Assembly (NCBI GenBank): GCA_041651115.1
Contig: JBAZJY010000002.1
Location: 73,846-137,845 of the forward strand
Reading direction: 5' to 3'
DNA from: Candidatus Omnitrophota bacterium
GTDB lineage: Bacteria; Omnitrophota; Gorgyraeia; Gygaellales; Profunditerraquicolaceae
DNA length: 64,000 nt
How positions within the stretch are numbered: the first letter of the stretch is position 1; each line of letters begins with the position of its first letter. Both the position numbers and the translations under genes were made by a program. The notes beneath the pieces were generated by a model, which ran no database searches, had not been told where the DNA came from, and worked only from the letters and a program-made list of their open reading frames with translations. Shown here piece after piece: positions 3,001 to 37,731 of this stretch.

Positions 3001-6000
3001 GAAGATTTCCGCGAGAGCATGGGTTTAATTGTCGGCACGCATGAAAACGGAGCATATAGAATTACCAGGCTGGTTCCGATCACTGAGTTTGAAAAAGGCA
3101 GCAGCTATGATTTCCTTCTTCCCGGAAAGGCCCAGGTGATCCGGATCATTGAGAATGAACTGCGGAGCGGTGAACAGATCCTGGGTGATTACCATAATCA
3201 TTCTTATGAAAGACTGCGCAGTTTTCAGAAACCGGGCCCCAGTTCAGAGGATGCCATGGGAGGCGGATACTTGAATATTATCGGATACGAGAATAAGATC
3301 GCAAATAACCGCCTGAACATAGTTTTAGAGCCCGAATTGGACTTGGATAAGATAACCATGGATGAGCTGGCGAATTTTGACCCGTCTAATTCGCGGGTTA
3401 TCCTCTATCCTTACATATCGCCGAACAGGGGATTGGAGAGAAGGATTATCGAGCTGGATAAGATCTATTTGGATGCCTTGACAAAAGAAGTTAATTCCGG
3501 AGCGACCAGCTCGCCGATGAAATTGGGGGATCTTAAGAAATTAGCTCTCGGCGCAATGATGGCGTTTTATTTGTCCTGCTTGAGCTTCCATAACGTTAAT
3601 GCCCAAGTCAATGACACGCCGGCAATTGATTATTATTTTACCGTTAGCTCGCAGCTCCAGGATTCCATAAACAACTTAGTAAAGAAAGAGTTTTATGACA
3701 TAGTTTCGTTATCGCCAGACCAGATAAAGCAGCTGTTGACGGCAAAAGACCTTACGGAATTTAAGTCGGTGGCTGAATCTATGTTAGAGAAGAAGGGGTT
3801 AAGCCTGCCTTATTATGCACCGGAGGATATTGCGGATTTAGTATCTTCCTCAAAAACAGGGGACAGCGATATCCAGAGGCTAATCAGGATCAAAGGCGGC
3901 CTGAATTATCTCAGTCAGCATCATCCCTGGGTATTCAGGTTCGTTATGTTTAATGCCCAAAGAATAATTTTTGATTTTACTTATAATAAAAGCGGGGGAT
4001 ATGAAAATGAGCGCAAAATATATTACGGCGTTTTGCTTGACAACTATGCCATTGAAGAAATCGCCGCATTTCTGGCGCATGAGGCCGCGCATAGCTTCTT
4101 GGAGCTGATGGGAATGCCTGTAGGCGGGGCCGCAGGAGAGAGCGTTGCGATATATTTAGGTGATCTGATATTAAAAAACGCAAATATCAGGTTAGGCGCA
4201 GATAAATTTATCCTTAATTTGTCTTCTGAAGCGGCAAACAGAGGTCATTGGGGGCCGTGGCAAGATGCATATTATGAAGAAACCTATAATAAGGCCGGCA
4301 TTGAATTAAGGGATCATCTCAGGCACTTGGAATTTATTACTAAGCTGCCCGCAACATTGTTGGATATCATCATATTTGGCTCAAAAGACCAGTGGGAAAT
4401 TTATCCGGAATACAGGCGGCTGGGGCTCGATGCGCTTGGGGAGATATTAGAATCTGTTGAGTCGCAGCCGGTTGAAACCAAGGAATTCTTCGGAGTTTTA
4501 TTTGCCAACTATTTTGATGAATTGTGGAACGCGGGGGACGGGCTATATCGTGAATTGATACGCGCATATTTATTAAAAAACACAAACTACATCCCTGCGG
4601 CAAAACAACGGTTGATATTAGATGAGGTCGGCAATGCTCAAGTGGATGCCAGCTCGCCGGTGAAGGCTGCAGGGTTCTTGAAGACGACCGCGCTGTTATC
4701 AATGCTGTTTTTCCTGCCGGTGTTTGTCCAGCAGTCATTCAGCCAGAGCGCAAGGGCGCCTACCAATGTAGAGATGACGATATATATGTCGCGCGTAAAG
4801 GACCTTTCCGAGGCCAAAGACTTAGGCAGTTTATTAAAGATCATCAAAGACGATAAGGCCCATGCATTGTTTAAGATGCAGGCGATGGATGCCGTGCAGC
4901 GCATGCCTATGGTAATGAATAAGGCCTCGGACCTGATGAGGGCACTTGGCGCGATTGAAGACATTTATAATGATCCGCAGACCAGCAATCTAATAAACGG
5001 GAATACAGTCAGCTGGCTGGAACAGATCATGAAGAAATATGAAATTATCTGGTGGGGGGGTAAGGATACTCTCTTTGCGCCGATAGATGTTTATAAAGGC
5101 ACAGCAGAACTGATCCAGCAGATCGCTGCCGATCACCCGGATTTTATCAAGCCCGGGTCGTTGGCAGAATTCATCAGCAGGCAGCGCCAACCGCAGCTGC
5201 TTTATAAGCCGTGGCCGCATTATCCGGTTTATCAAAATCCGCAGTTTATCGCCGGGGTGCAAAAATATAACGCCGACACGCGGGAATACTATTCCATTTC
5301 CATGGCTGTTTATGACCTGCTGAATCTGGCCGGGGTAGGCTTAAGCGATACGACTATCAGCCAGGCAACGGATTATATTATGCAGCAGCGGCAGGCCTTT
5401 GGCCAACGGGTATTCTTTGATAAAGAGACCACAGCCATATTCATTGTTACCGAAGGAGAGGAATCTCAAAAGGACGTTGATCTGTTACGGGGCATTGCGC
5501 TGGACGCAGGAGTCTTGGAAGAAAATATCCATATTTTCCGGGGCATGAAAGATAAGCGTAAGCTCGCAACGCTTATTTCCGAGAGCACCGGGCCGCTAAC
5601 CATCGCCACAAATATGGAAGGGAATGAAGCGTCCTGGCGCATGGATCCCGAAGGCAATCAGCTTTCTTATGCAGAGTTTGCCAAATGGCTTGAGGCACGA
5701 AGTATTTTAACCAATGTAAATATTATTCTTGACGGCTGCCTGTCGACCAACCTTACAGAAGGGATGATCAATCTGCTTTACGATCCTTATGATCCTGCTT
5801 CCAAAGCAGCAGCTATCAGAAGGGGCCTGCCGACCGTAGTCTCAACTTCGGACGATAACCACCCTAGTTATGCGGACCAGCAAGGCCAGAGTTTCTTTTA
5901 TTCCGAGTTAAGCCTTATGCCGCGCGTTCCCGGAAAGCCGCTCCTGGGCAGGCAGATATTAGATACCGAGATTGCCGGATATAAACGGATGTTCGTTCTT

Positions 6001-9000
6001 GAAAATCCGCGCGTTTCGGTTTTTCTGCCGCTGGAGGGCAGGGAAGAGTTAGACCATATTTTCGGCGGCAAGACAAAATGGGGAAAAGTCTGGTTTTTCC
6101 CGATCGGCCAGGCTGAACCTAAGACCGATACGCTTAAGCCGGATGGCCTGCTGGCGCTCGGGCCAAAAGAAACCGTTACCAGCTCGCCGCTGAAGGCCGG
6201 CGGGTTCTTTAAAACAGCTGCGTTGGTATCAATGTTGGTGCTCCTGCCGGCATTGGGCCAGCCATTATTCGGCCAGCAAGCTGAACTTTTATCTACCGAT
6301 GCGCAAGGCCGCGCAGAGTTTAAGAACAATGTCTCTCTTACTTTGGCATCTTTAGGGGGAGCCGTTGATATTACGGCAGCTGCCGAGGCTGATCGCCCCC
6401 GTACATACAATTACAACCCTCAAACCGGGATGCTGGAGATTACATATGCTATTCCGGGATATGTCAATGTCAGCAAACCCAACGACGTAGTTACAATAAC
6501 CGCGCGAAAAATTGTTCCGCAGTTTGCCCTTATTACCGATGAATCGGGAAGCCAGGATAAAGAAGCCATGACCGAGCAGGGCCGTCAGTTCGCAAGAGTC
6601 CTGCAGTTTATCCAGAATAGATATCCTGGCATGCGCAATATCCGAATAAGCACGGTTACCGATCCCAACCCTCAAGTTTCCTCTTATTCCGGTGCAGCCG
6701 ATGCGCAAGATTATTTTAATCAGCCGGTATTCCAGAGCGACCCGTTACTGGGAGCCACGCATTTCGTAGAGGCAGTAAGAAATACAATCAAATCTTTTAA
6801 TAATAGCGCTCCGGGGATAATTTTAGCAGCCTCTTCAGATTTTGAACAGGATCCTTTGGCCAGAGGCAGTGATCCTGTAAAACCGGAAGATTTGAGAGCT
6901 CCTTTTTATGAAATGGCCGGTGAATTAGAGGAGCTTAATACCCACCTTTTTATTGCAACGCAAAATGCTGACAGTCAAAAGAACATCCGAATATTGACGG
7001 ATGAGTATCTTAAAAAGTGCGAGGCGGAGGGAAAGGCGCCGTATATTCATTACCAGGTTGTAGGCGCGGAAAATATGAGCGCCGCATTTACCTCTTTTAT
7101 CGCTGAATCTGATTTTCCTGAACAAATTCCTTTACCTACGCAGAATAAGGATATCAAGATAGATTTTCTTTCTTCTGGCCCCGGCGGGCAAGACGCCTCC
7201 GGAGCGGTCAACCCGCAACAGGGGTCCCTTGCCGGTAGTATAAAAATAAACGGAAGCACTTTAGTCCTAAAAGATTTATTTAAGGGATTAGGGGATGTTG
7301 ATTCCGCGCAGGTCGTTTTTTCGTATGAACCCCTGATAGTTCCGCTACCATTAACGCACACCCCGCAGGATATTTACCTGGTGAAAGATTATAGCGGCAG
7401 CGTCAGGGATATAAAGTGGAATGCTTTCCTGAAAGACTTACTTATTAAATTAAAAGAGAGAGGAGACCGGATTATCGGCGGGACATTCTTTGGCCCGGAA
7501 GTCATCTCGGTAGCCGGTTTTGATGGCGTTTTAAGCGCCGTGGAATCGCCCAGGGGTGGGTATACCCATGGCTGGGCGGCCTTAAAAAAGATCTTCCAGC
7601 AAATGGACGATATGCCCGATAATGCGACATTATATTTTATTTCAGACGGCGTATTTAATGACCGGGATTTTACTGACGGGGAGAAAGAACGGGTCAAGGA
7701 AAAATTCCTGCAGAAATTAAAGGATAAAAACATACGCTTTGTCTGGATCGCGCCCGAAAAGGCTTCTCCGGGCGTAACCAAATTTTTGTCAAATGCCGTT
7801 AATAACGGAAAAGCAGCGGACAATCTCCGGGCTTCTTTAAGCCCCTATGCCACGCTGTTGACATTTGCCGTTGCTACCAACCCGGACAGGGGAGTGGTGT
7901 TTTATAAAAACGAAGATACGATTTCCGGCCTGGCCGAAGCCACGGGGCTTTATAGCAGGAAAGTTATCGATGTCCCGGAAAAATTCCCCATAAGGCAGGT
8001 GCAAATATTGTTTCAGGATGAGGGGAAAGAAAAGCGGATAGTAGTAGATATGCAAGACACAGAAGAAAAGCCCGGTTCCAGCTCGCCGATCACCGAGTTA
8101 TCCGGCCAGCTGCCTGAAGAAGAAGCCGCGCAGCTGGAAATACCATTTGTATACCCCCAGAATGCGCCTACCGTCATCTTGCCGCTGAAACTCAACGGCG
8201 CTGATAAAAAAGAATTAATGGAATATAAGGGTACCCTGGAGATTTTAAAAGCGAAATTATCAAATTACCTTGAACATCCCGAATATCTTAAAGACAAAGG
8301 AAAGCTCGAAAGCGTTTTGCCTATCGCCAAAGAGGCAATCAGCGAATTTTTGGGAAAAGTAGCTGCTGCCGATAAGTTAAGGCCGGTTTATGATACCTTT
8401 GCCCGGGCGGATTTTGATGCTCCTATAAACACAGATTTTGGCGACCAGTTTAATGGTTTTGTTGCTTATGTTCAAATGGGGATAAACCAACTTGATTCGC
8501 AAGGATCCATTTCATCGCGTTTAATTTTGAGCCTGATAACTACGCTTACCCAAACCATTGAATTTTTAGAGAACGCAATTTTAATCTTTGAAAAACTCAC
8601 TGGCCCCTCAAAGAGCGAATTTAAAACCAAGCTGTCAAACGGAGGATCGGGAAGCCCTTCCGTCCTCATATTGGATCTCAATGACCTTTTAAGCAGTGTC
8701 GGCTCAGAGATCAGCTCGCCGGTAAAAACAGAAGCTACGAATGATAAGGGCGGTATTGATTTTAGGGCGTTGCCGGTTGTGACGCAGCCGGTTTTAGGGA
8801 CGGTTCTCAGCCAAGGAGAAAAACGTCCCCAAATGGGGACGCTTTTACCTTGGACTGAGAACCGTCCCTCTCTTGACCAGGAATTACAGCAGATTAGGAA
8901 GATGATTGATTCCGGAATTGTTCCCTCAAGCGAGAGAATCAAGGAATATGCGCAGACTTGCGGCAGCCAGGACATAGATAAAATATTATCTTGTATCGCG

Positions 9001-9159
9001 GATATCTTAAGACTGGAAGAAGAGCGGGTTGAGGAAACCGATCCGCAGTTAAGACAGTTGGTCATGGTGCTTGAATCGGATAAGCCGGCAAATGAGATGC
9101 AGCTGGCAGTAGCCGCGATCTCGTTTTCCGCGAAAGATCCGGTTCTGGTGAAACCTTAA
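1..9159 (+). CDS. Giant multidomain protein, 5'-partial (frame open from nt 1; >3,050 aa). It has two GHKL/HATPase_c ATPase modules, an HExxH zincin-like motif, a vWA domain with a DxSGS MIDAS motif, and SSP-punctuated modules with internal signal-peptide-like segments.
   Basis: Frame 1 is open from nt 1 to the TAA at 9157-9159; the ORF track starts it at an in-frame GTG at 94. HATPase_c N/G1/G2 boxes are visible twice (NLIGNAIDAV..DNGGGIS..GGTGRGLALCKE at ~1290-1540; NLITNAVDEA..GTGLGLALIEEIVKEHGG at ~2440-2770). HEAAH lies at 4078-4092, DYSGSV at 7387-7401, and SSP junctions at 1667, 2864, 3506, 4649, 6179, 8078 and 8712. Confidence 0.7.
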   Translation, partial: NEYASELIRELIIPKLTREINTSKKYASLRQVYYSLILAQWFKAKFNSGSGKYENLINRKNLSGLTSQIFWDKQFYFQQYQDSFNKGEYNLKENRSTPFGQTIRTYMSGGLTLGNEISSAIQAQTIASKRSSSPLANKTFNQAAEIDANGNIRIAEGSVSAQEENIAILHALINQGPKAFLSGEKGDENRDRVIGIAEKFDFYVEELLDEEDEEDFFEYVLGLEKLLKLNPRVHQEPSEMFVHLDNLSHNLGHINNLFNIAIISFNKVDEVELRTGQMNMYLAEYQAIRKLLSWDGLNKINPEAVSDLFTDTIRYVVGSRALFKEIGDILNSNRDMIREKEEGLYSLIDGYLERARLVDSECTHNLGILKRLKEEIYEPGKKEPINIGVSVYEAIEPYLHNGHRVKFITDFRDQGMMVQANALRLSYTWTNLIGNAIDAVNKFKRTPEGRGVDGILTVSVRPVHTENTDIMEVSFQDNGGGISKAMSENDRLFLRGESDKQGGTGRGLALCKEAAEFHGGTISVEPRRVSEFDDRPEKTEDPKRGARFVIRLPVVASSPVAISEIAQKDSDKITREDKAAMLNHARQMDFYVQRIEEENDSQNLKAYATALAILEKEGVKPAEGVYAGKQIDFNIVSHDIGHMIIEMTVLLGILELVPVENDPAGYKKRALELWAKIQAWQAILDWEKTLGIAPGILSRMTEEIGSDLDSVGNFYNEVKDYFNRHVDSEIVADYSAAVDLRRGEREIIDFLLSELKNNISDPSRAAAIDEKFIINKLVWSYEKLKSANLNFQLRLRAENLQTYGNPLRVYSIFKNLITNAVDEAAGLATGSKFVKTPSGKFTEVRLTDEQKRTVEENKTIIIANKNIKEGDKDYAEFSIENIAYITPEMNAELYGGRKLFAKGQTGKESGTGLGLALIEEIVKEHGGSVDYYIKDIPGDDTLKKIQFVVKLPAVSSSPVSGDKVILSTAGTTISLSSGDQARIVSEFRRLANQITTEFSEEDFRESMGLIVGTHENGAYRITRLVPITEFEKGSSYDFLLPGKAQVIRIIENELRSGEQILGDYHNHSYERLRSFQKPGPSSEDAMGGGYLNIIGYENKIANNRLNIVLEPELDLDKITMDELANFDPSNSRVILYPYISPNRGLERRIIELDKIYLDALTKEVNSGATSSPMKLGDLKKLALGAMMAFYLSCLSFHNVNAQVNDTPAIDYYFTVSSQLQDSINNLVKKEFYDIVSLSPDQIKQLLTAKDLTEFKSVAESMLEKKGLSLPYYAPEDIADLVSSSKTGDSDIQRLIRIKGGLNYLSQHHPWVFRFVMFNAQRIIFDFTYNKSGGYENERKIYYGVLLDNYAIEEIAAFLAHEAAHSFLELMGMPVGGAAGESVAIYLGDLILKNANIRLGADKFILNLSSEAANRGHWGPWQDAYYEETYNKAGIELRDHLRHLEFITKLPATLLDIIIFGSKDQWEIYPEYRRLGLDALGEILESVESQPVETKEFFGVLFANYFDELWNAGDGLYRELIRAYLLKNTNYIPAAKQRLILDEVGNAQVDASSPVKAAGFLKTTALLSMLFFLPVFVQQSFSQSARAPTNVEMTIYMSRVKDLSEAKDLGSLLKIIKDDKAHALFKMQAMDAVQRMPMVMNKASDLMRALGAIEDIYNDPQTSNLINGNTVSWLEQIMKKYEIIWWGGKDTLFAPIDVYKGTAELIQQIAADHPDFIKPGSLAEFISRQRQPQLLYKPWPHYPVYQNPQFIAGVQKYNADTREYYSISMAVYDLLNLAGVGLSDTTISQATDYIMQQRQAFGQRVFFDKETTAIFIVTEGEESQKDVDLLRGIALDAGVLEENIHIFRGMKDKRKLATLISESTGPLTIATNMEGNEASWRMDPEGNQLSYAEFAKWLEARSILTNVNIILDGCLSTNLTEGMINLLYDPYDPASKAAAIRRGLPTVVSTSDDNHPSYADQQGQSFFYSELSLMPRVPGKPLLGRQILDTEIAGYKRMFVLENPRVSVFLPLEGREELDHIFGGKTKWGKVWFFPIGQAEPKTDTLKPDGLLALGPKETVTSSPLKAGGFFKTAALVSMLVLLPALGQPLFGQQAELLSTDAQGRAEFKNNVSLTLASLGGAVDITAAAEADRPRTYNYNPQTGMLEITYAIPGYVNVSKPNDVVTITARKIVPQFALITDESGSQDKEAMTEQGRQFARVLQFIQNRYPGMRNIRISTVTDPNPQVSSYSGAADAQDYFNQPVFQSDPLLGATHFVEAVRNTIKSFNNSAPGIILAASSDFEQDPLARGSDPVKPEDLRAPFYEMAGELEELNTHLFIATQNADSQKNIRILTDEYLKKCEAEGKAPYIHYQVVGAENMSAAFTSFIAESDFPEQIPLPTQNKDIKIDFLSSGPGGQDASGAVNPQQGSLAGSIKINGSTLVLKDLFKGLGDVDSAQVVFSYEPLIVPLPLTHTPQDIYLVKDYSGSVRDIKWNAFLKDLLIKLKERGDRIIGGTFFGPEVISVAGFDGVLSAVESPRGGYTHGWAALKKIFQQMDDMPDNATLYFISDGVFNDRDFTDGEKERVKEKFLQKLKDKNIRFVWIAPEKASPGVTKFLSNAVNNGKAADNLRASLSPYATLLTFAVATNPDRGVVFYKNEDTISGLAEATGLYSRKVIDVPEKFPIRQVQILFQDEGKEKRIVVDMQDTEEKPGSSSPITELSGQLPEEEAAQLEIPFVYPQNAPTVILPLKLNGADKKELMEYKGTLEILKAKLSNYLEHPEYLKDKGKLESVLPIAKEAISEFLGKVAAADKLRPVYDTFARADFDAPINTDFGDQFNGFVAYVQMGINQLDSQGSISSRLILSLITTLTQTIEFLENAILIFEKLTGPSKSEFKTKLSNGGSGSPSVLILDLNDLLSSVGSEISSPVKTEATNDKGGIDFRALPVVTQPVLGTVLSQGEKRPQMGTLLPWTENRPSLDQELQQIRKMIDSGIVPSSERIKEYAQTCGSQDIDKILSCIADILRLEEERVEETDPQLRQLVMVLESDKPANEMQLAVAAISFSAKDPVLVKP

Positions 9160-12211: not shown

Positions 12212-13453
12212 ATGGAATTTATCGCTGATTTCCACATTCACTCAAGATACTCGCGCGCCACATCCAAGGATATGGATGTCAAGCATCTGGCGGAATGGGC
12301 AAAATTAAAGGGCATCACCCTGATGGGCACGGGTGATTTTACCCATCATTTGTGGCTTGAAGAGCTAAGAAATAACTTAGAAGACCTTGGCAATGGCCTG
12401 TTCAAATATAATGATATACATTTTATCCTCACCAGCGAGATCAGCAGTATCTATTCCAAAAAGGGGAAGACCTACCGCATCCATAATATGGTCTTCAGCC
12501 CTTCGCTTAAGACTACGGATAAGATCAATTATAAGCTTTCACAGTGCGGCAACCTTGCTTCTGACGGCAGGCCGATACTGGGCTTAGACGCGGCAGAGCT
12601 TGCGCGTATTGTCTTCGATATTGACGAGAACTGCATGGTCGTTCCCGGCCATATCTGGACACCATGGTTTTCCCTCTTCGGGTCAATGTCCGGCTTTGAC
12701 CGCATTGAAGATTGCTTTGAAGACCAGGCGCCGAAGATCTTCGCTTTGGAAACCGGCCTCTCCAGCGACCCGGCAATGAACTGGCGTTTAAGCGCGCTGG
12801 ATAAGTTCACCTTGATCAGCAATTCCGACAGCCACAGCCCGTCAAAGATCGGCAGAGAAGCAAATGTATTTGACTGTGATCTGGATTATAAAACGATCCG
12901 GGAAGTGCTTAAGACCAAGGACCAAAAGAGGTTTTTATACACGATTGAATTTTTCCCGGAAGAGGGCAAATACCATTATGACGGCCACCGTAACTGCGAT
13001 ATCAGATGGTCACCTAAAGAAACAAAACAGCATAACGGGAAATGCCCTAAGTGCAACAAGCCGGTTACTGTGGGGGTGATGAATCGCGTTGACCAGCTGG
13101 CAGACCGGCCGGAAGGATATAAGCCGTCCAATAGCATTCCCTTTAAGAATCTTATCCCCTTTGAGGAGATCATTGCCGAGGCAAAGGGCGTGGCGTCCAC
13201 TTCTGTCAGCGTAGAGCGGGACTATCATAGCCTGCTTGCCAAATTTGGCACAGAATTCAATATTCTGCTGCGCGCATCAGAAGATGAACTGCGCAAGGGC
13301 CTGCCGTCAAAAGTCGCGGAAGGAGTTTTGCGGGTGCGCAAGGGCAAAGTGAATATTAACCCCGGGTTTGACGGAGAATACGGCAAAGTCGCCATTTTTG
13401 GCGAAAAAGATAAGCCGACAGCAGAAGGTGAAAAGCAATTAAGCTTGTTTTAG
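12212..13453 (+). CDS. Endonuclease Q (EndoQ) homolog. It has a PHP-like N-terminal domain and a C-terminal zinc finger.
   Basis: The N-terminus FIADFHIHSRYSRATSKDMDVKHLAEWAKLKGITLMGTGD closely resembles the archaeal EndoQ N-terminus. GKCPKCNKP is a Zn-finger near the C-terminus. Confidence 0.7.
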   Translation: MEFIADFHIHSRYSRATSKDMDVKHLAEWAKLKGITLMGTGDFTHHLWLEELRNNLEDLGNGLFKYNDIHFILTSEISSIYSKKGKTYRIHNMVFSPSLKTTDKINYKLSQCGNLASDGRPILGLDAAELARIVFDIDENCMVVPGHIWTPWFSLFGSMSGFDRIEDCFEDQAPKIFALETGLSSDPAMNWRLSALDKFTLISNSDSHSPSKIGREANVFDCDLDYKTIREVLKTKDQKRFLYTIEFFPEEGKYHYDGHRNCDIRWSPKETKQHNGKCPKCNKPVTVGVMNRVDQLADRPEGYKPSNSIPFKNLIPFEEIIAEAKGVASTSVSVERDYHSLLAKFGTEFNILLRASEDELRKGLPSKVAEGVLRVRKGKVNINPGFDGEYGKVAIFGEKDKPTAEGEKQLSLF

Positions 13454-13458
13454 TATAT

Positions 13459-13530
13459 GCGCCTGTGGCCCAACGGATAGGGCACTAGCCTCCGGAGCTG
13501 GTGGTACAGGTTCGATTCCTGTCAGGCGCA
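13459..13530 (+). tRNA. tRNA-Arg (anticodon CCG).
   Basis: Cloverleaf folded by hand: acceptor GCGCCTG/CAGGCGC, anticodon loop CTCCGGA, T-loop TTCGATT. No encoded CCA. Confidence 0.85.
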
Positions 13531-13541
13531 CTTTTATAACA

Positions 13542-13623
13542 GCGGGTCCTGTCTGCTGATTTACCCCGCTGCGCTCAAGCTTGCGCTTTCGCTCGCGGGG
13601 TCCCCCAATCAGCAGCCACCCGC
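13542..13623. repeat. Copy A of a structured ~85-nt intergenic repeat (long imperfect hairpin; central AAGCTTGCGCTTTCG loop). It is MITE-like or a small structured RNA.
   Basis: About 85% identical to 37638-37731. Internal arms pair as ctgctgatt/aatcagcag, accccg/cggggt and gcgggt/acccgc. It lies immediately 3' of tRNA-Arg. Confidence 0.6.
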
Positions 13624-13652
13624 GCTAACGAATAAGTGTTTATGAGAATGCC

Positions 13653-15724: not shown

Positions 15725-16502
15725 GACAATAAAGAGGGAATTAGAACAGGTGTTGGCGGGTAAGAAGATCATCGACGTGATCGTCAATAACCCGAAGGTC
15801 ATCCGCGAGCCGAAGAAAGACGGTTTTGTCAAAGGCTTAAAAGGCGCCGGGATCAGGAATGTTTTAAGAAAAGCAAAGCTTTTGATCATTGAGCTTTCTA
15901 CCGGTAAATCCCTGGCCATTCATCTAAAAATGACCGGCCAGCTGATCTATCCGGGTAACGGCAAGTCCAGCAGGGTAAGCTTCAAGCTTTCCGACGGCAG
16001 ATTGCTGGATTTTAATGACCAGCGCCTGTTCGCGGAATTGCGGCTGGTTAATGACTGGCGCGCCTTAAAGTTCGTGCGGGAGTTGGGGCCTGAACCGTTT
16101 GATATTACCCGGGAACGTTTCAAGGCAATGCTTACCGATAAAAAAACAAAGATAAAGCCGCTGATCATGGACCAGCAATTCATTTCCGGTATCGGTAATC
16201 TGTATGCTGCCGAAGCGTTATTCAGGGCAAAGATAGATCCTTCGCGCCCGGCATGCAGCCTGAAAGATGCCGAAAAAGATTTGTTGTTTAAGGAAATAAA
16301 AGATACATTGAAAGAGGCGATAAAATACGGCGGCTCGTCCGTTGACCAATATGTGCGTTCAACGGGTAAGCCCGGCAATTACGCGAAATACCACCGGGTT
16401 TATGACCGCCTGGGCAAGCCTTGCCCAATATGTAAAACGCCGGTAAAGCGAATTGCCTTGGGTGGCAGGGGAACATATTTTTGCCCTAAATGCCAGAAAT
16501 AA
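15702..16502 (+). CDS. mutM: Formamidopyrimidine-DNA glycosylase.
   Basis: N-terminal MPELPEVE catalytic motif and a C-terminal zinc finger CPICKTP..CPKCQK. Confidence 0.9.
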
Positions 16503-16518
16503 CGGGAGCTAGCAGAAG

Positions 16519-17211
16519 ATGAAAAAACGTATTAAGATAAACGGAGTCATCATTTTTATCTGCGTCATCGCAATGATGCTTTTTCCTAATGTATTTTTGC
16601 GCATGAGCTTCAACAAGATAGATATTTTAACGGGCATACTAGGATTAGAGCTTATGTTTTTCGGGCTGCTGCTAAGGGTTTCCAGCCGCGGTTATAAATC
16701 CGAACTTTCCGTAGGGGGCAATAATCTTGTGCGCACCGGCCCATACTCGTTAGTAAGGAACCCGATGTACCTGGGTATTTGTTGCATTGCCCTCGGTATT
16801 ATCATGGTGCTATTCCAGTGGTGGACGCTGGCCGTATTCGGTATATTTTTTGCGTTGCGTTACCTTACCTTGATCCGGGTTGAAGAGAAAGGCCTTCTTG
16901 AAAAATTCGGACACCGTTACAGCGAATATCAGAAAGACGTGCCGCGGATATTGCCCAGGCTGAACACGCGGCTGAATAAGGACCTGCTGAATTGCCTGCC
17001 GTTAAAGCTGAGCTGGATAAAAAAAGAACTGAACAGCATTTTGATCATTGTCCCGGGGGTCTTAGGCATTGATATGTGGAAGAAATTCATATTATGCGAA
17101 AACGACCTCGCGCTGCCGTATTTTTTGATCCTTAGCTGGATAATCTGCGCGCTGATTGTCCTGGCAGCTGTTCTGGTAAAAAATTATGAAGGCTACCCAA
17201 AGCAAAAGTAA
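16519..17211 (+). CDS. Isoprenylcysteine carboxyl methyltransferase (ICMT) / phospholipid methyltransferase-family membrane protein.
   Basis: Multi-TM protein with the RTGPYSLVRNPMYLG family motif. Confidence 0.65.
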   Translation: MKKRIKINGVIIFICVIAMMLFPNVFLRMSFNKIDILTGILGLELMFFGLLLRVSSRGYKSELSVGGNNLVRTGPYSLVRNPMYLGICCIALGIIMVLFQWWTLAVFGIFFALRYLTLIRVEEKGLLEKFGHRYSEYQKDVPRILPRLNTRLNKDLLNCLPLKLSWIKKELNSILIIVPGVLGIDMWKKFILCENDLALPYFLILSWIICALIVLAAVLVKNYEGYPKQK

Positions 17212-17998
17212 GATCTTAAGCAATTTAAAAATATCCGGGAACTATTTTAAGCTCCAGGTTATCTGTCCTTGCGTTGCTGCTGCAGCTCGGCCCGGGCAGT
17301 TTGTGATGGTGCAGGTGAATAACGGCATTGAGCCGCTGCTGCGCCGGCCGCTGGGCGTGCATAGGCTTCCGGGGCAGAAAAAAAATATCGTAGAGCTGCT
17401 TTATGAAGTTGTGGGCAGGGGAACAGGTCTTCTTTCACGCAAAAAGCCAGGCGAAAGCATAGATATTATCGGCCCGCTGGGCAATGGCTTTGATTATGGG
17501 CCAGCCTACGGCCGGTACAGGCCGCAGGTTTTGGTAGCCGGGGGAATGGGGGTAGCGCCGTTAACTTTTCTTGCAGAAAAGTTAACGGAAGGCAAAAGGC
17601 AAAAGGCAAAAGGCAAAATTATAGTTCTGCTTGGGGCAAAGACCAAAGATCAGATTCTTTGTGAAAAAGAATTCAAAAAAATAGGTTGTGAAGTGAGGAT
17701 TGCTACCGATGATGGTTCGCGTGGATTTAAGGGCAGAGTTACCGATTTATTGAACCGCGAATTACGCACCACGGATTACGCACCGTGGACTATTTATGCC
17801 TGCGGGCCAGGGCCGATGTTAAGGGCAATATCCTGTTTGTCAAAAGACCGCAGCCTGCCTGCGCAGCTTTCTTTGGAAGCGCATATGAGCTGCGGCTTTG
17901 GCGCCTGTTTAGGCTGCGTGGTTAGTACTACCGGCGGATATAAAAGAGTATGTAAAGAAGGCCCGGTTTTTTCGGCCGAGGAAATTATCTGGGAATAA
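17186..17998 (+). CDS. pyrK: Dihydroorotate dehydrogenase electron-transfer subunit.
   Basis: FAD/NAD-binding fold with a C-terminal 2Fe-2S cysteine cluster CGFGACLGCVV. Confidence 0.85.
   Translation: MKATQSKSKILSNLKISGNYFKLQVICPCVAAAARPGQFVMVQVNNGIEPLLRRPLGVHRLPGQKKNIVELLYEVVGRGTGLLSRKKPGESIDIIGPLGNGFDYGPAYGRYRPQVLVAGGMGVAPLTFLAEKLTEGKRQKAKGKIIVLLGAKTKDQILCEKEFKKIGCEVRIATDDGSRGFKGRVTDLLNRELRTTDYAPWTIYACGPGPMLRAISCLSKDRSLPAQLSLEAHMSCGFGACLGCVVSTTGGYKRVCKEGPVFSAEEIIWE
17591..17618 (+). repeat. (GGCAAAA)x4 heptanucleotide tandem repeat inside pyrK.
   Basis: Read directly. It encodes KRQKAKGK in a linker that is longer than in typical PyrK. Confidence 0.8.
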
Positions 17999-18011
17999 AC
18001 TGGAGGGGCAC

Positions 18012-18371
18012 ATGACCCAAATAGCTTATATTCTTCTGGGTTTGGCTGCCGGGATCTTCGGCGGAATGTTCGGCATCGGCGGAGGCGCGATCCTCGTTCC
18101 TGCGCTGGTATACGTTTTCGGCCTGACGCAGCATCAGGCGCAAGGGACAACCCTGGCAGTAATGATTCCGCCGATCGGGCTGCTGGCGGCAATGCGTTAT
18201 TATTACGGCGGCAATGTAAAGCTGGGCATGGCAGGGTTTATTTGCGCTGGGTTTTTTATCGGCGGCCTGATCGGCGCCAACTTTGTGCAGGGCATATCTG
18301 CTCCACTGTTGAAAAAGCTATTCGGCACGTTCCTTCTGGTGGTGTCTTTGCATATGGTCATCGGAAAATAA
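18012..18371 (+). CDS. Half-size TSUP (TauE/SafE, DUF81) membrane protein with a single 4-TM repeat.
   Basis: GxGGG motif (FGIGGGAILVPAL); 119 aa, whereas canonical members are about 250 aa. Confidence 0.6.
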   Translation: MTQIAYILLGLAAGIFGGMFGIGGGAILVPALVYVFGLTQHQAQGTTLAVMIPPIGLLAAMRYYYGGNVKLGMAGFICAGFFIGGLIGANFVQGISAPLLKKLFGTFLLVVSLHMVIGK

Positions 18372-18372
18372 T

Positions 18373-19314
18373 ATGAAAACAAAAATTTCCGTTAATATCG
18401 GCAGGCTCAAATTAAAGAACCCGGTAATGGTTTCCTCCGGCACTTTCGGGTATGGGGAAGAATTCTCCGATTTTGTTGAGCTGAAAAAAATCGGGGCGAT
18501 CGTATCCAAGACCATCACTTTGAATCCGCGTAAAGGAAATCCTCCGCCGCGTACCTGCGAAACCCCGGGCGGCATGCTTAATTCCATTGGCCTGGAAAAT
18601 CCCGGGTTAAACGCATTTATCGGCGATAAACTGTCTGTTTTAGTTAAGACCGGAGCGCCGGTAATCGTGAGTATCGCCTCGGAATCCGGCATTGCTGAAT
18701 TTGTAAAATTGGCAGGATGCCTGGATAAGTTGAAAGAGGTTGCGGCAATAGAAGTAAATATATCCTGCCCGAACGTGCGAAGCGCAAAGCGTATGGCCAC
18801 CAGCGCTAAATTGATTTCGCAGGACCCCAAGGCAACCTATGAGACGATCAGGGCAATACGCAAAGTTACGGGAAAAACATTGATCGCTAAACTTTCGCCG
18901 AACGTTACCGATATTTCCGAGATTGCCCTTGCCAGTGAAGCGGCAGGCAGCGATGCAGTAAGCTTGATAAATACCTTGACCGGGATGAGTATTGACGTGG
19001 ATACGCGTAAGCCGAAGATCGCCTGCGTTACCGCAGGCTTGAGCGGCCCGGCGATCCGGCCGATTGCCGTAAGGATGGTCTGGGAGGTTTATCGCGCAAT
19101 AAAGCTACCGGTGATCGGCATGGGCGGCATTAACGATGTGAATAGCGCTTTAGAATTTCTCATTGCCGGAGCAAGCGCCGTGAGCATAGGCACGGCCAAT
19201 TTCATTAATCCCGGGGTAGCCGAAGAAATCATTTCCGGCCTCGGGCGATTTATGGTAAAAAATAAGATAACTGACATTAAGCAGCTTATCGGGAGCGTGA
19301 AGCTTGAAAAGTGA
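18373..19314 (+). CDS. pyrD: Dihydroorotate dehydrogenase catalytic subunit (class 1B).
   Basis: NPVMVSSGTFGYG N-terminus and TIM-barrel FMN motifs (GMGGI). Confidence 0.9.
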   Translation: MKTKISVNIGRLKLKNPVMVSSGTFGYGEEFSDFVELKKIGAIVSKTITLNPRKGNPPPRTCETPGGMLNSIGLENPGLNAFIGDKLSVLVKTGAPVIVSIASESGIAEFVKLAGCLDKLKEVAAIEVNISCPNVRSAKRMATSAKLISQDPKATYETIRAIRKVTGKTLIAKLSPNVTDISEIALASEAAGSDAVSLINTLTGMSIDVDTRKPKIACVTAGLSGPAIRPIAVRMVWEVYRAIKLPVIGMGGINDVNSALEFLIAGASAVSIGTANFINPGVAEEIISGLGRFMVKNKITDIKQLIGSVKLEK

Positions 19315-19978
19315 GATCATCCTGGCTTTAGACGTTGACGCGGCGCAAAAAGCAAAAAAAATTGCGGCAAGGCTTTATCCGAAGATAAAAATATTTAAGA
19401 TAGGCCTGCAGCTTTTTAGCGCTAGCGGCCCGGAGATGATCAAATATATCAACCGTAAAGGCGCAGCTGTTTTCCTGGACCTGAAATTATTTGATATTCC
19501 CAACACGGTTGCCAATGCTATCCGGCAGGCAGTGCGGCTAAGAGTCAAAATGCTCACTTTGCATATTTCCGGCGGAGAGGCAATGTTAAAAGCAGCCGTA
19601 GAAGCAGCCAAAAACGAAGCGCGCTCGCTTGGCGTAAAAAAACCGCTTTTGATCGGAGTAACTGTATTGACCAGCCAAAAAGCCTCTGCGGAAACAGTGC
19701 TAAGGATGGCAAAGGCAGGCCTTGCCTGCGGTTTAGACGGGATAGTCTGCTCTGCCCGCGAAGCAGCATATTTAAGGAAGAAAATAAAAAGCAGGTTTTA
19801 TATTATTACTCCAGGCATAAGGCCGGGTAATGCATGCACCGACGACCAGAAGCGCACTGCCACTGTCCGGGAAGCGGTTAAGGCAGGAAGTAATTTTTTA
19901 GTAATCGGCAGGCCGGTACTCAAAGCAAAAAATCCGCTGCTCGCGGTAAAAGAAGTCTTAGCAGAAATTGGAGAGTAG
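19304..19978 (+). CDS. pyrF: Orotidine-5'-phosphate decarboxylase.
   Basis: IILALDV..KIGLQLF..DLKLFDIPNTV motifs. TTG start overlapping the pyrD stop. Confidence 0.85.
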   Translation: MKSEIILALDVDAAQKAKKIAARLYPKIKIFKIGLQLFSASGPEMIKYINRKGAAVFLDLKLFDIPNTVANAIRQAVRLRVKMLTLHISGGEAMLKAAVEAAKNEARSLGVKKPLLIGVTVLTSQKASAETVLRMAKAGLACGLDGIVCSAREAAYLRKKIKSRFYIITPGIRPGNACTDDQKRTATVREAVKAGSNFLVIGRPVLKAKNPLLAVKEVLAEIGE

Positions 19979-19981
19979 ACA

Positions 19982-20590
19982 ATGGCAGAAGAAATCAAAA
20001 ATCTGATTGAGAAGATCCACAGCGAAGGAATACAGGCAGCTGAAGCCAAGGCCGCAGAGATTGAAAATAAGGCAAGAGAAGAAGCAGATGCCATCGTGAG
20101 CCGGGCAAAAGAAGAGGCGGAGGCAATGCTTTCCGCAGCCAAGGAACGGATCTCGCGCATGGAAGAAAAAAGCAAAACCCTGCTTACCCAGGCAGCAAGA
20201 GACCTCCTGCTTTCTTTGCGAAAAGAGATCAATGCTGTTTTGGGCCGCCTGGTCAACGCAGATGTGCGTTCTGCGTTAAACCCGGATGCGCTGCAAAGAA
20301 TAATCCTGGAGATGGTCAAGAATTATCCCGGAGGCCAAGAACAGGAAATTGTAATTTCCTTAAAGAAAGAAGATGCCGAACAGTTACAAAAACATTTCTT
20401 GGGCCGTCTCAAGGAAGAAACAAAGAGAAATATCGTGATCAAGCCTTCGGAAGATATCCTCGGCGGCTTTACTATCAGCTTTGACGCGGGAAAATCCCAA
20501 TTTGATTTTACCGATAAGGCGCTGGCAGAATACATCAGTTTATATCTTAAGCCGAATTTAAGCGGGATACTTAAAGAAGCGACTTCCTAA
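19982..20590 (+). CDS. atpE: V-type ATP synthase subunit E.
   Basis: About 200 aa, highly charged and helical (AEAKAAEIENKAREEAD..), positioned at the operon head. Confidence 0.7.
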   Translation: MAEEIKNLIEKIHSEGIQAAEAKAAEIENKAREEADAIVSRAKEEAEAMLSAAKERISRMEEKSKTLLTQAARDLLLSLRKEINAVLGRLVNADVRSALNPDALQRIILEMVKNYPGGQEQEIVISLKKEDAEQLQKHFLGRLKEETKRNIVIKPSEDILGGFTISFDAGKSQFDFTDKALAEYISLYLKPNLSGILKEATS

Positions 20591-20591
20591 A

Positions 20592-21125
20592 ATGAATTCT
20601 AATTACGTTTATTTGATTTCTCAATTGCCAATGCTGCATTTTAACGCAAAGCCGGCGCTTTCTTTTGAAAAGTTCATGGAGCTTTGCCAACGATTCATCC
20701 CGGAAAAAGACGCGCAGCGTCTAAGCAGCCTGCCGCAGCCGGATAGCTATGCCGGATCCAAGGAACAAGATCCGGTTATCCGGCAGTGGATTGACTTTGA
20801 CCTGTCTTTAAGGAACGACTTGGCAAAGATCCGCGCCAGCCGCAGGCATGTTGACCCTGCGGCCTACTTACGCGCCGGCGGCTTACGTGACGGCAGCGTA
20901 ATGCATGTTGTTAATGCCGCTCAAAGGAACCCTTCTCCTTTGGAAGCGGAGAGATTGCTTGATGAAGCAAGGTGGCATGAACTGGACGAGTTGGAAGCGG
21001 GCCGGTTTTTTGACTTTGGGGCTTTGGTGATCTACGCGTATAAATTGATCATCCTTATCCGCTGGGAAAAGATAGGCAGCGCGGACAAAGAAAAGATATT
21101 TGAAGAAACTCTTGTTAAAAATTAA
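20592..21125 (+). CDS. Hypothetical protein occupying the position of the conserved DUF2764-like gene in Chlamydia/spirochaete-type V-ATPase operons.
   Basis: Sits between atpE and atpA. No recognisable motif. Confidence 0.35.
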   Translation: MNSNYVYLISQLPMLHFNAKPALSFEKFMELCQRFIPEKDAQRLSSLPQPDSYAGSKEQDPVIRQWIDFDLSLRNDLAKIRASRRHVDPAAYLRAGGLRDGSVMHVVNAAQRNPSPLEAERLLDEARWHELDELEAGRFFDFGALVIYAYKLIILIRWEKIGSADKEKIFEETLVKN

Positions 21126-21138
21126 GGCGGGCTAAAAG

Positions 21139-22875
21139 ATGCGAGAAATAAGAAAAGGAAGGATTACGAAGATCAACGCTAACATGGTAAGCGCGCAGTT
21201 CAGCGACTTTGTCATGCAGAATGAAGTCGCTTATATTATCCACGGCCAAGAGCGCTTAAAAGCGGAAATCATCCGCGTGCGCGGCAACTCCGCGGAGATG
21301 CAGGTTTATGAAGCCACTACCGGCTTGAAACTCGGCGAAGAAGTTGAGTTCAGCGGAGAGCTGCTTTCCGTGGAATTGGGGCCGGGGTTACTGGGTCAGA
21401 TCTTTGACGGCCTGCAGAACCCACTTCCTTTGTTAGCGCAAAAATGCGGATTTTTCTTAAAACGCGGTATTTATATGGATCCCCTGGAAGACAAGCAGGA
21501 ATGGGAATTTACCCCGCTGGTTAAGCCGGGAGATAAGCTGCGCGCCGGAGAAAAGATCGGTTTTGTCCCGGAAAAAATATTTAAACATTATATCATGGTG
21601 CCGTTTGCTTTATCCGGCGTATTTGAAGTGGTGAATATTGCCGCGGCAGGCAAATATAATTTAAAGCAGCCGGTCGCGCAAATAAAGGACCAGAATGCCA
21701 AGGTTTTTGATATTTGCCTTTCCCAGGTCTGGCCGGTAAAGATGCCGATCAGGGCCTATGCGGAAAAACTCAGGCCGCAGGAGACTCTGGTTACCAAAAT
21801 GCGCCTGATCGATTCGCTCTTCCCGGTTGCCAAGGGCGGGACCTATTGCATCCCCGGCCCGTTTGGCGCGGGAAAAACCGTGCTGCAGCAATTGACCAGC
21901 CGCCATGCGGAAGTCGATATCGTGATCATTGCCGCATGCGGCGAACGCGCCGGAGAAGTCGTAGAAACTTTGAAGACCTTTCCGGAGATAACCGACCCGC
22001 GCACCGGCAAGCCATTAAGCGACCGCACGGTAATTATCTGTAATACCAGCTCTATGCCTGTGGCTGCCCGCGAATCAAGCGTTTACACTGCCGTAACCAT
22101 TGCCGAATATTACCGCCAGATGGGGCTGAATGTCCTGCTTCTGGCTGATTCCACGTCGCGCTGGGCGCAGGCAATGCGGGAAATGTCCGGCAGGCTGGAA
22201 GAGATCCCCGGCGAAGAAGCATTCCCCGCGTACCTTGAATCGCGCATTGCTTCTTTTTATGAAAGGGCAGGTCTGGTGCGGCTTTATGACGGCACAACCG
22301 GTTCAGTTACTATCGGAGGCACAGTCAGCCCGGCAGGCGGAAACTTTGAAGAACCGGTAACCCAGGCAACGCTAAAGGTCGTGGGCGCTTTTCACGGCCT
22401 TTCCCGGGAACGCTCCGATGCCAGAAGATACCCGGCAATCGACCCTTTGATCAGCTGGAGCAAGTATAAAAGCTTCATTTCCGATGACCGGGTCGCCTCC
22501 GGGCACGGTATCTTGCGTAAGAGCCATAATGTGGCGCAAATGATGAAGGTTATCGGCGAAGAAGGCACTGCCCTGGCCGATTACACGGATTATCTTAAGG
22601 GAGAATTTTTTGATTTTGTCTACCTGCAGCAAAATGCGTTTGACGCGGTGGATGAAGCCTCAGCCAAAGAACGGCAGGCATATATATTTGATTTTATCTA
22701 CGGGATCCTGAGCGCGGAACTTGTTTTTAAAGACAAAGAAGACGCGCTGCGTTTCTTCCAGAAATTACGTCAGCTTTTTAAAGGCTGGAACTCCGCCGGC
22801 TGGGAAAGCAGGGAATTCCATGAGGCGGAGGCGGAAATAAATAGTTTATTGAAAGAGAAAATAAAGGAAAAATAA
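21139..22875 (+). CDS. atpA: V-type ATP synthase catalytic subunit A.
   Basis: Walker [10 protein letters not shown]; 578 aa. Confidence 0.92.
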
Positions 22876-22876
22876 T

Positions 22877-24169
22877 ATGCAAAAAGTTTATACCAATATC
22901 ATCCAGATCGCCGGAGACGTGGTTACGGTTGAAGCGGAGGGGGTAGGGTATTCGGAGATTGCCCAGATCTTTACCCGCAACAGCGTTTCTTTGGCGCAGG
23001 TTATCCGTCTCGACGGGAAAAAGGTATTTTTACAGATCTTTGCCGGCAGCCGCGGAGTTTCCACCGGGGACAAGGTAAGGTTCTTAGGCCATGCCATGCG
23101 CGTTGCCAGCGGCGCAAATCTTCTAGGCCGCGTTTTTAACGGCAGCGGCCTGCCTTTGGATAACGGGCCGCAGCTGACAGACGAGATGATCGAGATCGGC
23201 GGGCCGCCGGTAAACCCGGTAAAAAGGATCATCCCGCGTAAAATGATCCGCACCGGTATCCCGATGATTGATGTTTTTAATTCGCTTGTCGAGTCGCAGA
23301 AACTGCCGATCTTTTCCATTGCCGGCGAGCCGTATAATGAATTGCTGGCGCGCATTGCCGTGCAGGCGGAAATCGACATCATTATCCTCGGCGGCATGGG
23401 CCTGAAATACGACGACTTCCTTTTCTTCCGCGATACGCTTGAAGAGCACGGCAGCCTTTCGCGCTCGATCATGTTCGTGCATACGGCAGCTGACCCGACA
23501 GTAGAGTGCCTGCTGGTGCCGGACATCAGCCTGGCAGTGGCGGAAAATTTTGCGCTGCAGGGGAAAAGGGTGCTTGTGCTTTTGACCGATATGACTAATT
23601 TCTGCGATTCTTTAAAAGAGATCGCCATTACCATGGAGCAGATCCCCTCTAACCGCGGATATCCGGGCGACCTATACAGCCAGCTTGCCAGCCGTTATGA
23701 AAAGGCAGTGGATTTTGACACTGCCGGATCGATCACCATCCTGGCGGCAACTACTATGCCCGGAGACGACGTCACGCATCCTGTCCCGGATAATACCGGC
23801 TACATTACCGAGGGCCAGTTTTATTTAAAGAACGGCGTGATCGAGCCTTTTGGGTCCTTAAGCCGTTTAAAGCAGCAGGTAAACGCTAAAACCCGCGACG
23901 ACCACCGGGTGATCATGGATATGATGATCCAGCTTTTTGCCAGCTACCGCGAAGCGCTGGAAAAACAATCCATGGGTTTCCAGATGAGTGCCTGGGATAA
24001 AAAGCTTCTGCAATACGGAAAGCTTTTTGAAGAAAAAATGATGTCTTTAAAAGTGAATATCCCTCTGGAAAAGGCGCTTGACCTGGGTTGGCAAATCATG
24101 GCAGATTGTTTCCAGCCTGAAGAAACCGGCATCAAAAAATCCATGATCGAGAAATATTGGCCAAAATGA
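22877..24169 (+). CDS. atpB: V-type ATP synthase subunit B.
   Basis: Degenerate P-loop region, A/B-family fold, 430 aa. Confidence 0.9.
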
Positions 24170-25482
24170 AGCCTTTTATTATCTCCTGTCTTGTGGTTTT
24201 ATCGTTTCTACGCATTCCTGCTTTTGCCGGCGAGGAAGATAAGCTTAACAAGGCCTGGCAGCATATCGCTGTAAATCGTCTATTTAGCCAGCAGCTTAGT
24301 TCCGAAGAAGCCATAGTCTGGCACCTTGATTATAATGGTTTTGCCGCGCTCGTTCCCGGCTGCCTGATGATTTTTGATTACGATAATGAAACCCCCGCTC
24401 CGCAGAATGATAAGAAATCCGAAACCGGCATTGTGGAAAGCCTGCTTACGGGAGTGATCAACCCCGAAGAAATCAAGGACCAGCCCGTAATATTTTTCTT
24501 TTCTCATGAGCATCCGGCGGAAAAGCTGATCAAACTGCTTAAATGGAAGGATGCGATCAAGGATGTGCTTTTTGTTTTGCCGGAGGGAATCTATTTAAAA
24601 TATGAGGAGCAAATCAAGGAGCTCAAGCAGGCAGACAGCGCCGATTTAAATAAAAAAGACGTTTTTAGCGTGATTAAACGCGTACTGCCAAACCACACAT
24701 ATGTTGTTAAGGGCAATACTATTTCAGTGCTTGAGCAGCAGGCGCCGCATCCGGGCGTGGAGTTTATCGTAGAGACTGCCAACGGCCTTACCATATATCA
24801 TTCGGGCTCCCTTCTCTGCCGGCATTGCCCGGATGTAGAGAACGAACGCATAGCCCTGGCAGTTTATTCGGACCTGCGCAGCCCCGCCGGAAACATTTTT
24901 CTGGCTGGTAACTGCGCTATCCCGGAATACGACATCGGGATAATCGGCGTAAGCGGGTTTAAGCCGGGGGGTTTTGAGGCAGAGATAGCCGGGCGGATAA
25001 AAGAGAAAAACTATTTATTGGAGAAAGATAAATTCTTTACCGAAAGAAATCCGTATTTTTGGGCTGATCTGGGAAATTTGCTTTGGGTTGAGCATGAAAC
25101 CAGCGCGATCAACGATTATTTCAAAAAAATAAAAGGCAATCCGGACATATTAAAGGACATAAAAAACGCCGTAGTCAGGAGATACGCCGAGTACATGGAT
25201 GACGTAAGACAATATTGCAGCCTGGAGACAACGCCCGATGAATGCGATGAGAAAATAAGCTACCGGAAATACGGAGGGATTTTTTATACCTTTAGTTCTG
25301 ATGTCCCAAGCTTTGCCCGGGGAGAATGCTTTCTTTTCAGCGCCGGCCATAAACCGGCCGGCGGAGAATACTTTTCCGGCTATTGGTCTTCCGAGGGATG
25401 GCCGTTATTCCCGCCAAACAGCATTTTATGGGATATTTTCCAGGAACATGGAATTAAGGATGTAGGCGATAATGAAAATTAA
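24166..25482 (+). CDS. Secreted hypothetical protein inserted within the V-ATPase operon.
   Basis: N-terminal signal peptide [21 protein letters not shown]. No recognised domain. The ATG overlaps the atpB stop (ATGA). Confidence 0.5.
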
Positions 25483-27852: not shown

Positions 27853-27879
27853 GTCAATTTTTAAAGAAGGGAGTCTGAT

Positions 27880-37639: not shown

Positions 37640-37731
37640 TTGCGGGTCCTGCCTGCCGATTTACCCCGTCCTCACTGAAAGCTTGCGCTTTCGTTCGGTC
37701 GGGGTCCCCAAATCAGCAGTCACCCGCAATT
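37638..37731. repeat. Copy B of the structured intergenic repeat, with perfect 10-bp terminal inverted repeats AATTGCGGGT/ACCCGCAATT.
   Basis: Aligns with 13542-13623 and overlaps the stop codon of the upstream gene. Confidence 0.6.

Follow-up and report, generated by a model that had tools for sequence, protein, structure and literature searches.

A probable low-copy mobile hairpin element in the Omnitrophota, with likenesses to REPINs, ERIC sequences, and MITEs

REPINs are REP doublets that form hairpins and are mobilised by RAYT tyrosine transposases (Bertels and Rainey 2011, PMC3116915), and two superfamilies of REP sequences are defined by their GTAG and CGTC tags (PMC3733652). ERIC sequences, also termed IRU, are imperfect palindromes of approximately 127 bp found in Enterobacteriaceae (reviewed by Delihas 2011, PMC3184786). 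Here we describe a new sequence family of this known kind of bacterial element from DNA of the Omnitrophota, and assign a probability of roughly 0.65 to the reading that it is a low-copy, non-autonomous, non-coding mobile hairpin (REPIN/MITE/ERIC-like) of approximately 90-100 nt. The cells of the Omnitrophota are very small, and the phylum is uncultured and little studied; a full-text literature search found no description of interspersed repeat elements in this phylum.

The window analyzed here is a 64,000-nt stretch of DNA that forms part of a 487-kb ENA metagenome contig (ERZ27247363 k141_3084633) and whose proteins carry the NCBI label Candidatus Omnitrophota. Relatives of the repeat were sought with one exact-pattern scan each of genome and metagenome collections, using patterns that fixed 21-22 arm positions, and more divergent members will consequently have been missed. 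Orthologous junctions were compared in nine close relatives at graded protein identity (78-90%), using as queries an Endonuclease Q family gene for the first copy (12212-13453, + strand, upstream of a tRNA-Arg) and the gene directly downstream of the second.

Two copies of the repeat, both on the + strand, were found in the window at the places given in an earlier note on this DNA. The core of copy A spans 13542-13623 and is composed of a 5' arm (13542-13568), a spacer (13569-13595), and a 3' arm (13596-13623), and the core of copy B spans 37642-37727 with the same arrangement (5' arm, 37642-37668; spacer, 37669-37699; 3' arm, 37700-37727). Covariance model R1 extends copy A to 13539-13627 (83.9 bits, E = 6e-20) and copy B, with its extended outer stem GTAATT.../...AATTAC, to 37636-37733 (90.9 bits, E = 8e-22). 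The two cores agree at 71 of 86 positions (83%), close to the ~85% previously claimed, and the conserved central motif that had been pointed out, AAGCTTGCGCTTTCG, is present without change in both. The window holds exactly two occurrences of each arm pattern, against zero expected from shuffles, and a covariance-model scan of the 64 kb with filters off detected no third copy. Copies A and B measure 86-98 nt and contain no ORF.

Both copies fold into long imperfect hairpins, as the earlier note had proposed. RNA folding of the + strand gave -44.4 kcal/mol for copy A (z = -5.3) and -49.3 kcal/mol for copy B (z = -8.3) relative to dinucleotide-shuffled controls; the minus strands fold about as well (z = -4.7 and -9.7, respectively), and DNA folding parameters return the same hairpin shape as RNA parameters for either copy. 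The perfect 10-bp terminal inverted repeat reported for copy B is correct and is actually 12 bp long, its stem running outward to 37636-37733 via GTAATTGCGGGT/ACCCGCAATTAC. Of the 15 differences between the two copies, 11 are in the apical spacer, whose pairing is not the same in A as in B, and four are in the arms, where one is unpaired, one changes G-C to G-U, and two create mismatches. The suggestion that differences fall largely in unpaired positions holds only in part.

The earlier note had called for a search for further copies, and the pattern scans returned four, bringing the family to six members. All four are in other Omnitrophota DNA: at 2116-2204 of L003 and 2679-2767 of L004 (both Omnitrophota MAGs), at 6832-6923 of L005 (a 647-kb JGI metagenome contig, the same DNA as L020), and at 526-613 of L007 (a 1-kb JGI metagenome contig). 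Copy number appears low, with two copies in 64 kb, at least one on the 647-kb L005 contig, and at least one in each of the two MAGs, although these counts are lower bounds because the scans required exact arm matches. The copy in L005/L020 is probably a third copy in the window's own genome, given that L020 and the window (i) come from the same ENA assembly, (ii) have the same GC content (0.484), (iii) share a tetranucleotide signature (r = 0.95-0.97, the within-window value), (iv) have their closest relatives in the same three samples, and (v) both carry a second palindromic repeat family described below. The genome of L003 is very different from that of the window (GC 0.41 vs. 0.48; tetranucleotide r = 0.55-0.60), and despite this dissimilarity the arms of its copy differ from those of copy B at only 3 of 55 positions. 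Blastn against phages, plasmids, and 5,426 E. coli genomes gave no match, and neither did a scan of viral contigs with three patterns.

Several other candidates were rejected. Matches in L001 (Lysobacterales), L002 (Phytohabitans), and L006 agree with the family only at the pattern bases, that in L006 also being inside a coding region. A weak covariance-model match at L015 1125-1185 is an unrelated terminator-like hairpin, and those at window 8795-8869, window 47642-47719, and L020 1243-1317 belong to the different palindromic family. Separately, two equal-scoring 29-nt weak model matches lie 60 nt apart in L005 (1718-1746 and 1778-1806) and are reminiscent of a short tandem or CRISPR-like repeat.

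All six members follow a common plan, namely a 5' arm GCGGGTCCTGYCWGYYGATTTACCCCG, a spacer of 27-31 nt, and a 3' arm CGGGGTCCCCMAATCAGCWGYCACCCGC, in which the arms are inverted and 27-28 nt long (in short, GCGGGTCCTG... / ...CACCCGC). The arms build the outer, middle, and inner stems of a hairpin of approximately 40 bp, in which the stems are set apart by two conserved bulges (5' side, CCU; 3' side, CCCC) and the spacer extends the hairpin with sequences that differ among members. The terminal GCGGGT/ACCCGC is found in five of six members and is replaced by a compensated ACGGGT/ACCCGT in L005. Beyond it, the outer stem is lengthened by bases that are complementary and yet not conserved, being AATT/AATT in copy B and L005, GG/CC in L004, and A/T in L003. 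Pairwise identity is 85-100% in the arms (all pairs) versus 26-94% in the spacers; invariance at 21-22 arm positions is by construction, since members were found by exact arm patterns, but the free arm positions outside the search pattern are still far better conserved than the spacer. Copy A and L007, for example, have identical 5' arms and spacers that are only 48% identical.

A covariation analysis, likewise suggested by the earlier note, supports the proposed structure. In the six-sequence alignment 95.5% of cells hold standard base pairs, as opposed to 29-46% in controls with the partner shifted by 1-3 columns. Both sides have changed in eight pairs, and none of 500 shuffles reaches the observed covariation score. 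Nine differences separate copy B from L005, six of which form three coordinated double changes: two are compensatory base pairs, one in the outer stem (G-C to A-T) and one in the middle stem (C-G to T-A), and the third is a swap at a Y/Y position. At the level of aligned sequences, these patterns demonstrate that pairing is maintained by compensatory changes. The use of G-U versus C-A pairs as a clue to the folding strand favours the + strand in L004 and the - strand in copy B, with one case each.

A short unpaired tail may also belong to the element at its 3' end. Immediately past the hairpin, the sequence reads CCAAAGC in both L004 (2768-2774) and L005/L020 (L020 9988-9998), similar bases (CACAAGAC) follow the hairpin in L007, and comparison of L020 with the empty site shows that approximately 11 nt past the hairpin are also extra. 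The 1-kb L007 contig is itself repeat-rich with no recognisable ORF. Its element is nested between AATTTACGGTTTT (498-510) and AAAACCGTAAATT (627-639), and a 21-nt inverted pair (496-516 and 947-967) bounds a unit of approximately 470 bp. A possible solitary inverted copy of the 5' end of the element (13/15 matches, the CCU bulge being represented by its complement) is located at 869-883 and may be a sign of a longer element that shares these ends.

Gene context is readable for five copies, and their five junctions are non-orthologous housekeeping sites. Copy A lies between tRNA-Arg(CCG) (13459-13531, + strand), whose 3' end is 8-11 nt upstream, and a SLOG/LOG-like gene (PF18306; 13653-14105, + strand) that directly follows within a pyrimidine-biosynthesis cluster. 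Copy B lies between an LPG_synthase_C-domain gene (36737-37639, + strand), whose TAA stop codon (37637-37639) falls within the outer stem, and a gene for a DnaQ-like exonuclease with a WYL domain (37744-38565, + strand) directly downstream. The adjacency to the tRNA and the overlap with a stop codon had both been recognised previously. The remaining junctions are queA to tgt (L003), hisD to the next gene (L004), and a gene for an MBL hydrolase to xerD (L005), and tblastn found no orthologues of the flanking genes of L003, L004, or L005 in the window. All five copies have the orientation of both neighbours and start 0-10 nt past the 3' end of the upstream gene or tRNA; the downstream gene begins 11-35 nt after the element in four of them, and 233 nt after it in L003. 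It is important to note that the window has almost all of its genes on the + strand and a positive GC skew along its full length, such that it appears to lie entirely on the leading strand and transcription-linked and replication-linked causes of element orientation are confounded. A V/A-type ATPase operon (subunits E, A, B, D, I, K) adjoins the pyrimidine-biosynthesis cluster (window 22877-28326 and 16330-24105, via L012).

Strong GC-rich hairpins placed right after stop codons and a tRNA would be compatible with a non-canonical terminator or attenuator family lacking a U-tract, but we consider this very improbable. No T-run or U-tract follows any of the six copies, a scan found no consensus promoter or terminator coinciding with the window copies, and the ordinary terminator-like hairpins of the window are short and unrelated to the element. 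Furthermore, the genes downstream follow at the short distances given above with no consensus promoter, and in relatives they overlap or are translationally coupled to the upstream gene. In such co-directional, packed arrays an efficient terminator would silence dnaQ-WYL, pabB-like, xerD, tgt, and other genes. The stable, conserved structure and intergenic location are also what a trans-acting small RNA gene in several paralogous copies might present, a reading that we regard as very improbable given that (i) the element starts 0-10 nt past the upstream gene, which leaves no room for a promoter, and no consensus promoter was found, (ii) no terminator follows the element, (iii) the apical region, where a conserved seed would be expected, is the most variable, (iv) the insertion sites are arbitrary housekeeping junctions, and (v) no Rfam family matches. 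With respect to the last, the Rfam search that had been proposed, run on the whole window at gathering thresholds (Rfam 15), gave no match to the element, and at E<=10 it yielded nothing relevant for both copies and L007, the only overlap being mir-548 at 13.8 bits against a 90-bit threshold.

Comparison with relatives reveals that all three testable copies (A, B, and L005) are missing from the same junction in related genomes. The copy B junction measures 104 nt with the element, and in relatives is a 4-nt overlap (85% identity), 7 nt (79%), and 7 nt (78%). The copy A junction, from tRNA to SLOG gene, is 121 nt long with the element and 40 nt (90%), 15 nt (88%), 12 nt (85%), and 44 nt (81%) in relatives, and the L005 junction is 107 nt with the element and 3 nt (86%) and 1 nt (87%) in relatives. 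DNA that is extra relative to the empty sites amounts to the hairpin plus about 10 nt only, with no gene travelling along, and a covariance-model search of approximately 150 kb of the relatives' DNA found no copy elsewhere. Because the same junctions are empty in relatives, these copies are lineage-specific insertions rather than ancestral spacers or a segmental duplication. As judged from the junction sequences, copies have been gained at new places, namely in very short spacers that directly follow a gene or tRNA at its 3' end, and in sense to the flanking genes, and compact operons accept hairpins of approximately 100 nt between genes that overlap or are translationally coupled in relatives.

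The same comparisons dispose of two further explanations. The earlier note had reasoned that two copies only, with no covariation, would indicate a simple segmental duplication; instead, more copies, compensatory changes, and empty sites were found. Such a duplication, or chance similarity within one genome, would be in keeping with the presence of only two copies in the 64-kb window. It is nonetheless refuted, and its residual probability is negligible: other genomes hold copies at other sites and only the element is extra compared to the empty sites, to which can be added that the flanks of copies A and B are unrelated and that the chance expectation for the arm patterns is zero. Integron attC-like recombination sites marking gene cassettes would share with the element an imperfect hairpin with conserved extrahelical bases, a position directly 3' of ORFs, and a single orientation. 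However, no GTTRRRY/RYYYAAC core site is found inside copy A or B and no integrase is nearby, and the empty-site comparisons contradict the attC reading, which we consider exceedingly improbable, in that the hairpin alone was inserted, rather than gene and site together, next to neighbours that are syntenic housekeeping genes in all relatives.

Taken together, the element has been gained at new sites and dispersed, its arms are conserved, and its pairing is maintained. Of the alternatives offered by the earlier note (a MITE-like or REP-like element, or a small RNA or terminator family), the mobile-repeat branch is supported by the non-orthologous copies, the compensatory changes, and the 3/3 empty sites, whereas the small RNA and terminator branch is not supported, given the lack of a U-tract, consensus promoter, or Rfam match. 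The window, L003, and L020 contain no transposase, RAYT (Y1), or integrase gene, and no full-length parent insertion sequence with the same ends was found in the window, approximately 300 kb of Omnitrophota loci, or viral contigs. No consistent target-site duplication was found across the six copies (TA, AATT, and TAAC were tried); copy B is the only one flanked by TA...TA, and copy A has TAAC...TAAC at unequal offsets. We envisage that the arms or bulges would be recognised, probably on a folded single strand, by an enzyme that is encoded elsewhere and copies the element; such a mechanism would fit both the uniform orientation and the absence of a target-site duplication. After insertion, the element would be transcribed within a polycistronic mRNA, where the hairpin is presumably tolerated and neutral to mildly useful; it may serve as a 3' barrier or processing site, and would not be expected to act as an efficient terminator.

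Alternatively, the element could be a host-beneficial cis-acting RNA module (a 3'-exonuclease block, an RNase III/RNase E processing site, or a protein-binding module) that was recruited to several operons and is kept by selection, mobility being only the route by which it arrived. This is consistent with the presence of every readable copy in a co-directional array, in sense and 0-10 nt past a gene 3' end, with arms and two bulges that are kept in very different genomes, alongside compensatory stem changes, and with a copy number that is low, unlike that of typical selfish repeats. We nevertheless consider it unlikely, as the orthologous operons work without the element in nine of nine close relatives, often with overlapping genes, the flanking genes have no common function, and neither strand is singled out as the folding one (G-U/C-A, one case each). 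The two readings, cis-acting RNA module and mobile hairpin, are not mutually exclusive.

Arms and unpaired bulges that are near-identical across very different genomes are more than decaying selfish DNA normally shows, and could equally reflect a host function. A more speculative proposal, which we rate as quite unlikely, is that the arms and bulges are the recognition site of a conserved protein, which could be a single-stranded DNA transposase engaged in a long-term partnership of the REPIN-RAYT kind or a factor that binds or processes RNA, making the family a mobile hairpin system exchanged horizontally and restricted to the Omnitrophota or a domesticated intercistronic RNA module rather than decaying selfish DNA. 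If a dedicated enzyme binds the arms, the REPIN/RAYT type of element-host partnership would be extended to a new phylum; otherwise, the family is one more entry, of an ordinary kind, in the list of known bacterial palindromic repeats. The element offers a marker for strain typing and for spotting assembly breakpoints, and its covariance model could be used for a phylum-wide census.

Several observations were made on other repeats in the same DNA. A second, unrelated palindromic family of approximately 78 nt, TAGGGACGGTTCT...AGAACCGTCCCTA (DNA fold z about -11), has copies at window 8794-8871, window 47641-47720, and L020 1242-1319. It behaves like the element described above, and its presence alongside counts in favour of the mobile-hairpin reading. 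All three copies probably belong to a single genome, and the relatives' loci contain none. These copies differ by a compensatory C-G to T-A change and are flanked by TA...TA in two cases and TA...TC in the third, which would fit an IS630/mariner-like TA target. In the L020 copy, the terminal TAG is the stop codon of an upstream ribBA-like gene. The copy at 8794-8871 is read in frame (26 codons, no stop) within ORF 94-9159, which encodes a giant HATPase_c-containing protein of 3,295 aa, and it encodes nearly all of the 28 residues that link two conserved blocks within the C-terminal domain. Homologues of this giant ORF have unrelated linkers of 13-29 residues at that place, making the copy a candidate net insertion or replacement, although a net in-frame insertion is unproven because the linker is naturally variable. 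The 9-mer GTCCCCAAA occurs three times in the window (8825-8833, 37704-37712, and 47672-47680; 0.63 expected, with 1 of 100 shuffles reaching 3), each time within a palindromic element (once in copy B and twice in the second family), and may be a shared motif or a coincidence. Finally, a palindrome of operator-like look, GTCACAAATTGTGAC / GTCACAATTTGTGAC, is present in two copies 12 nt apart at 58272-58313, inside an ORF6N/KilA-N-type DNA-binding gene (58072-58617) that is followed by two ORFs without a family match (58797-60153); the region 58072-60153 could be a small mobile or phage-derived island.

When compared with described systems, the Omnitrophota element shares features with several classes. 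Strict membership in the MITEs, REP/REPINs, or ERIC sequences is not established, on account of target-site duplication, of tag and abundance, and of homology, respectively; the earlier designation as MITE-like or REP-like thus stands for the general kind of element but not for strict membership, for which a consistent target-site duplication, a tag, and a transposase are missing and copy number is low. Classical MITEs (Correia/NEMIS, RUP, Nezha; PMC3184786, PMC10969869) are likewise non-coding elements of <200 bp with terminal inverted repeats that form long hairpins, are dispersed with presence or absence differing between relatives, and are often found at gene 3' ends and co-transcribed. 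In agreement with the usual description of a MITE, the Omnitrophota element is below approximately 400 bp with no transposase or ORF, possesses terminal inverted repeats, and displays both dispersal (five junctions) and insertion polymorphism (3/3). It differs from classical MITEs in lacking a consistent target-site duplication, in having no detected parent insertion sequence with matching ends, and in that its inverted repeat covers the entire element rather than the termini alone. Rickettsia palindromic elements (RPE) and other in-ORF repeats resemble the second palindromic family, whose copy at 8794-8871 is read in frame in the 3,295-aa ORF, but the family of copies A and B was not seen within an ORF and only reaches into a stop codon.

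REPINs provide a closer match in architecture. Like them (PMC3116915), the element combines conserved inverted arms with a less conserved spacer that is constrained mainly by hairpin formation and undergoes compensatory changes, and is an extragenic, non-coding sequence of approximately 100 nt without target-site duplication. Its arms could also fold singly, the GGGT/ACCC motif occurring four times (GCGGGT...ACCCCG...CGGGGT...ACCCGC), and in L007 it is nested with other repeats. Unlike REPINs, it has no GTAG or CGTC tag at its arm ends, the arms beginning with GCGGGT and ending with ACCCGC (L003 and L007 have a GTAG upstream of their copies, beyond the limits of the conserved element), and a single arm gives only a 4-7-bp stem with a loop of approximately 15 nt, which is not a typical REP palindrome. 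Moreover, its copy number is low (lower bounds), compared with tens to hundreds of REPINs per genome, no RAYT gene is found in the window, L003, or L020, and REPIN hosts are Proteobacteria or Cyanobacteria rather than Omnitrophota.

ERIC sequences differ from the element in phylum, in having no sequence similarity to it (no blastn match in 5,426 E. coli genomes), and in that ERIC-type copies are flanked by TA duplications, whereas in the Omnitrophota only copy B has TA...TA. Both are nevertheless whole-length imperfect palindromes of approximately 100 nt that can be low-copy, have no known mobilising enzyme, and are expected to act on mRNA as hairpins. ERIC sequences lie in transcribed intergenic DNA, often just 3' of genes (PMC3184786), as the Omnitrophota element would if it is transcribed as proposed, and they too display strong sequence conservation between species while occupying different sites in each (PMC3184786). 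On balance, our analysis places the architecture of the element closest to that of REPINs, and its habits appear closest to those of ERIC-type whole-length palindromes.
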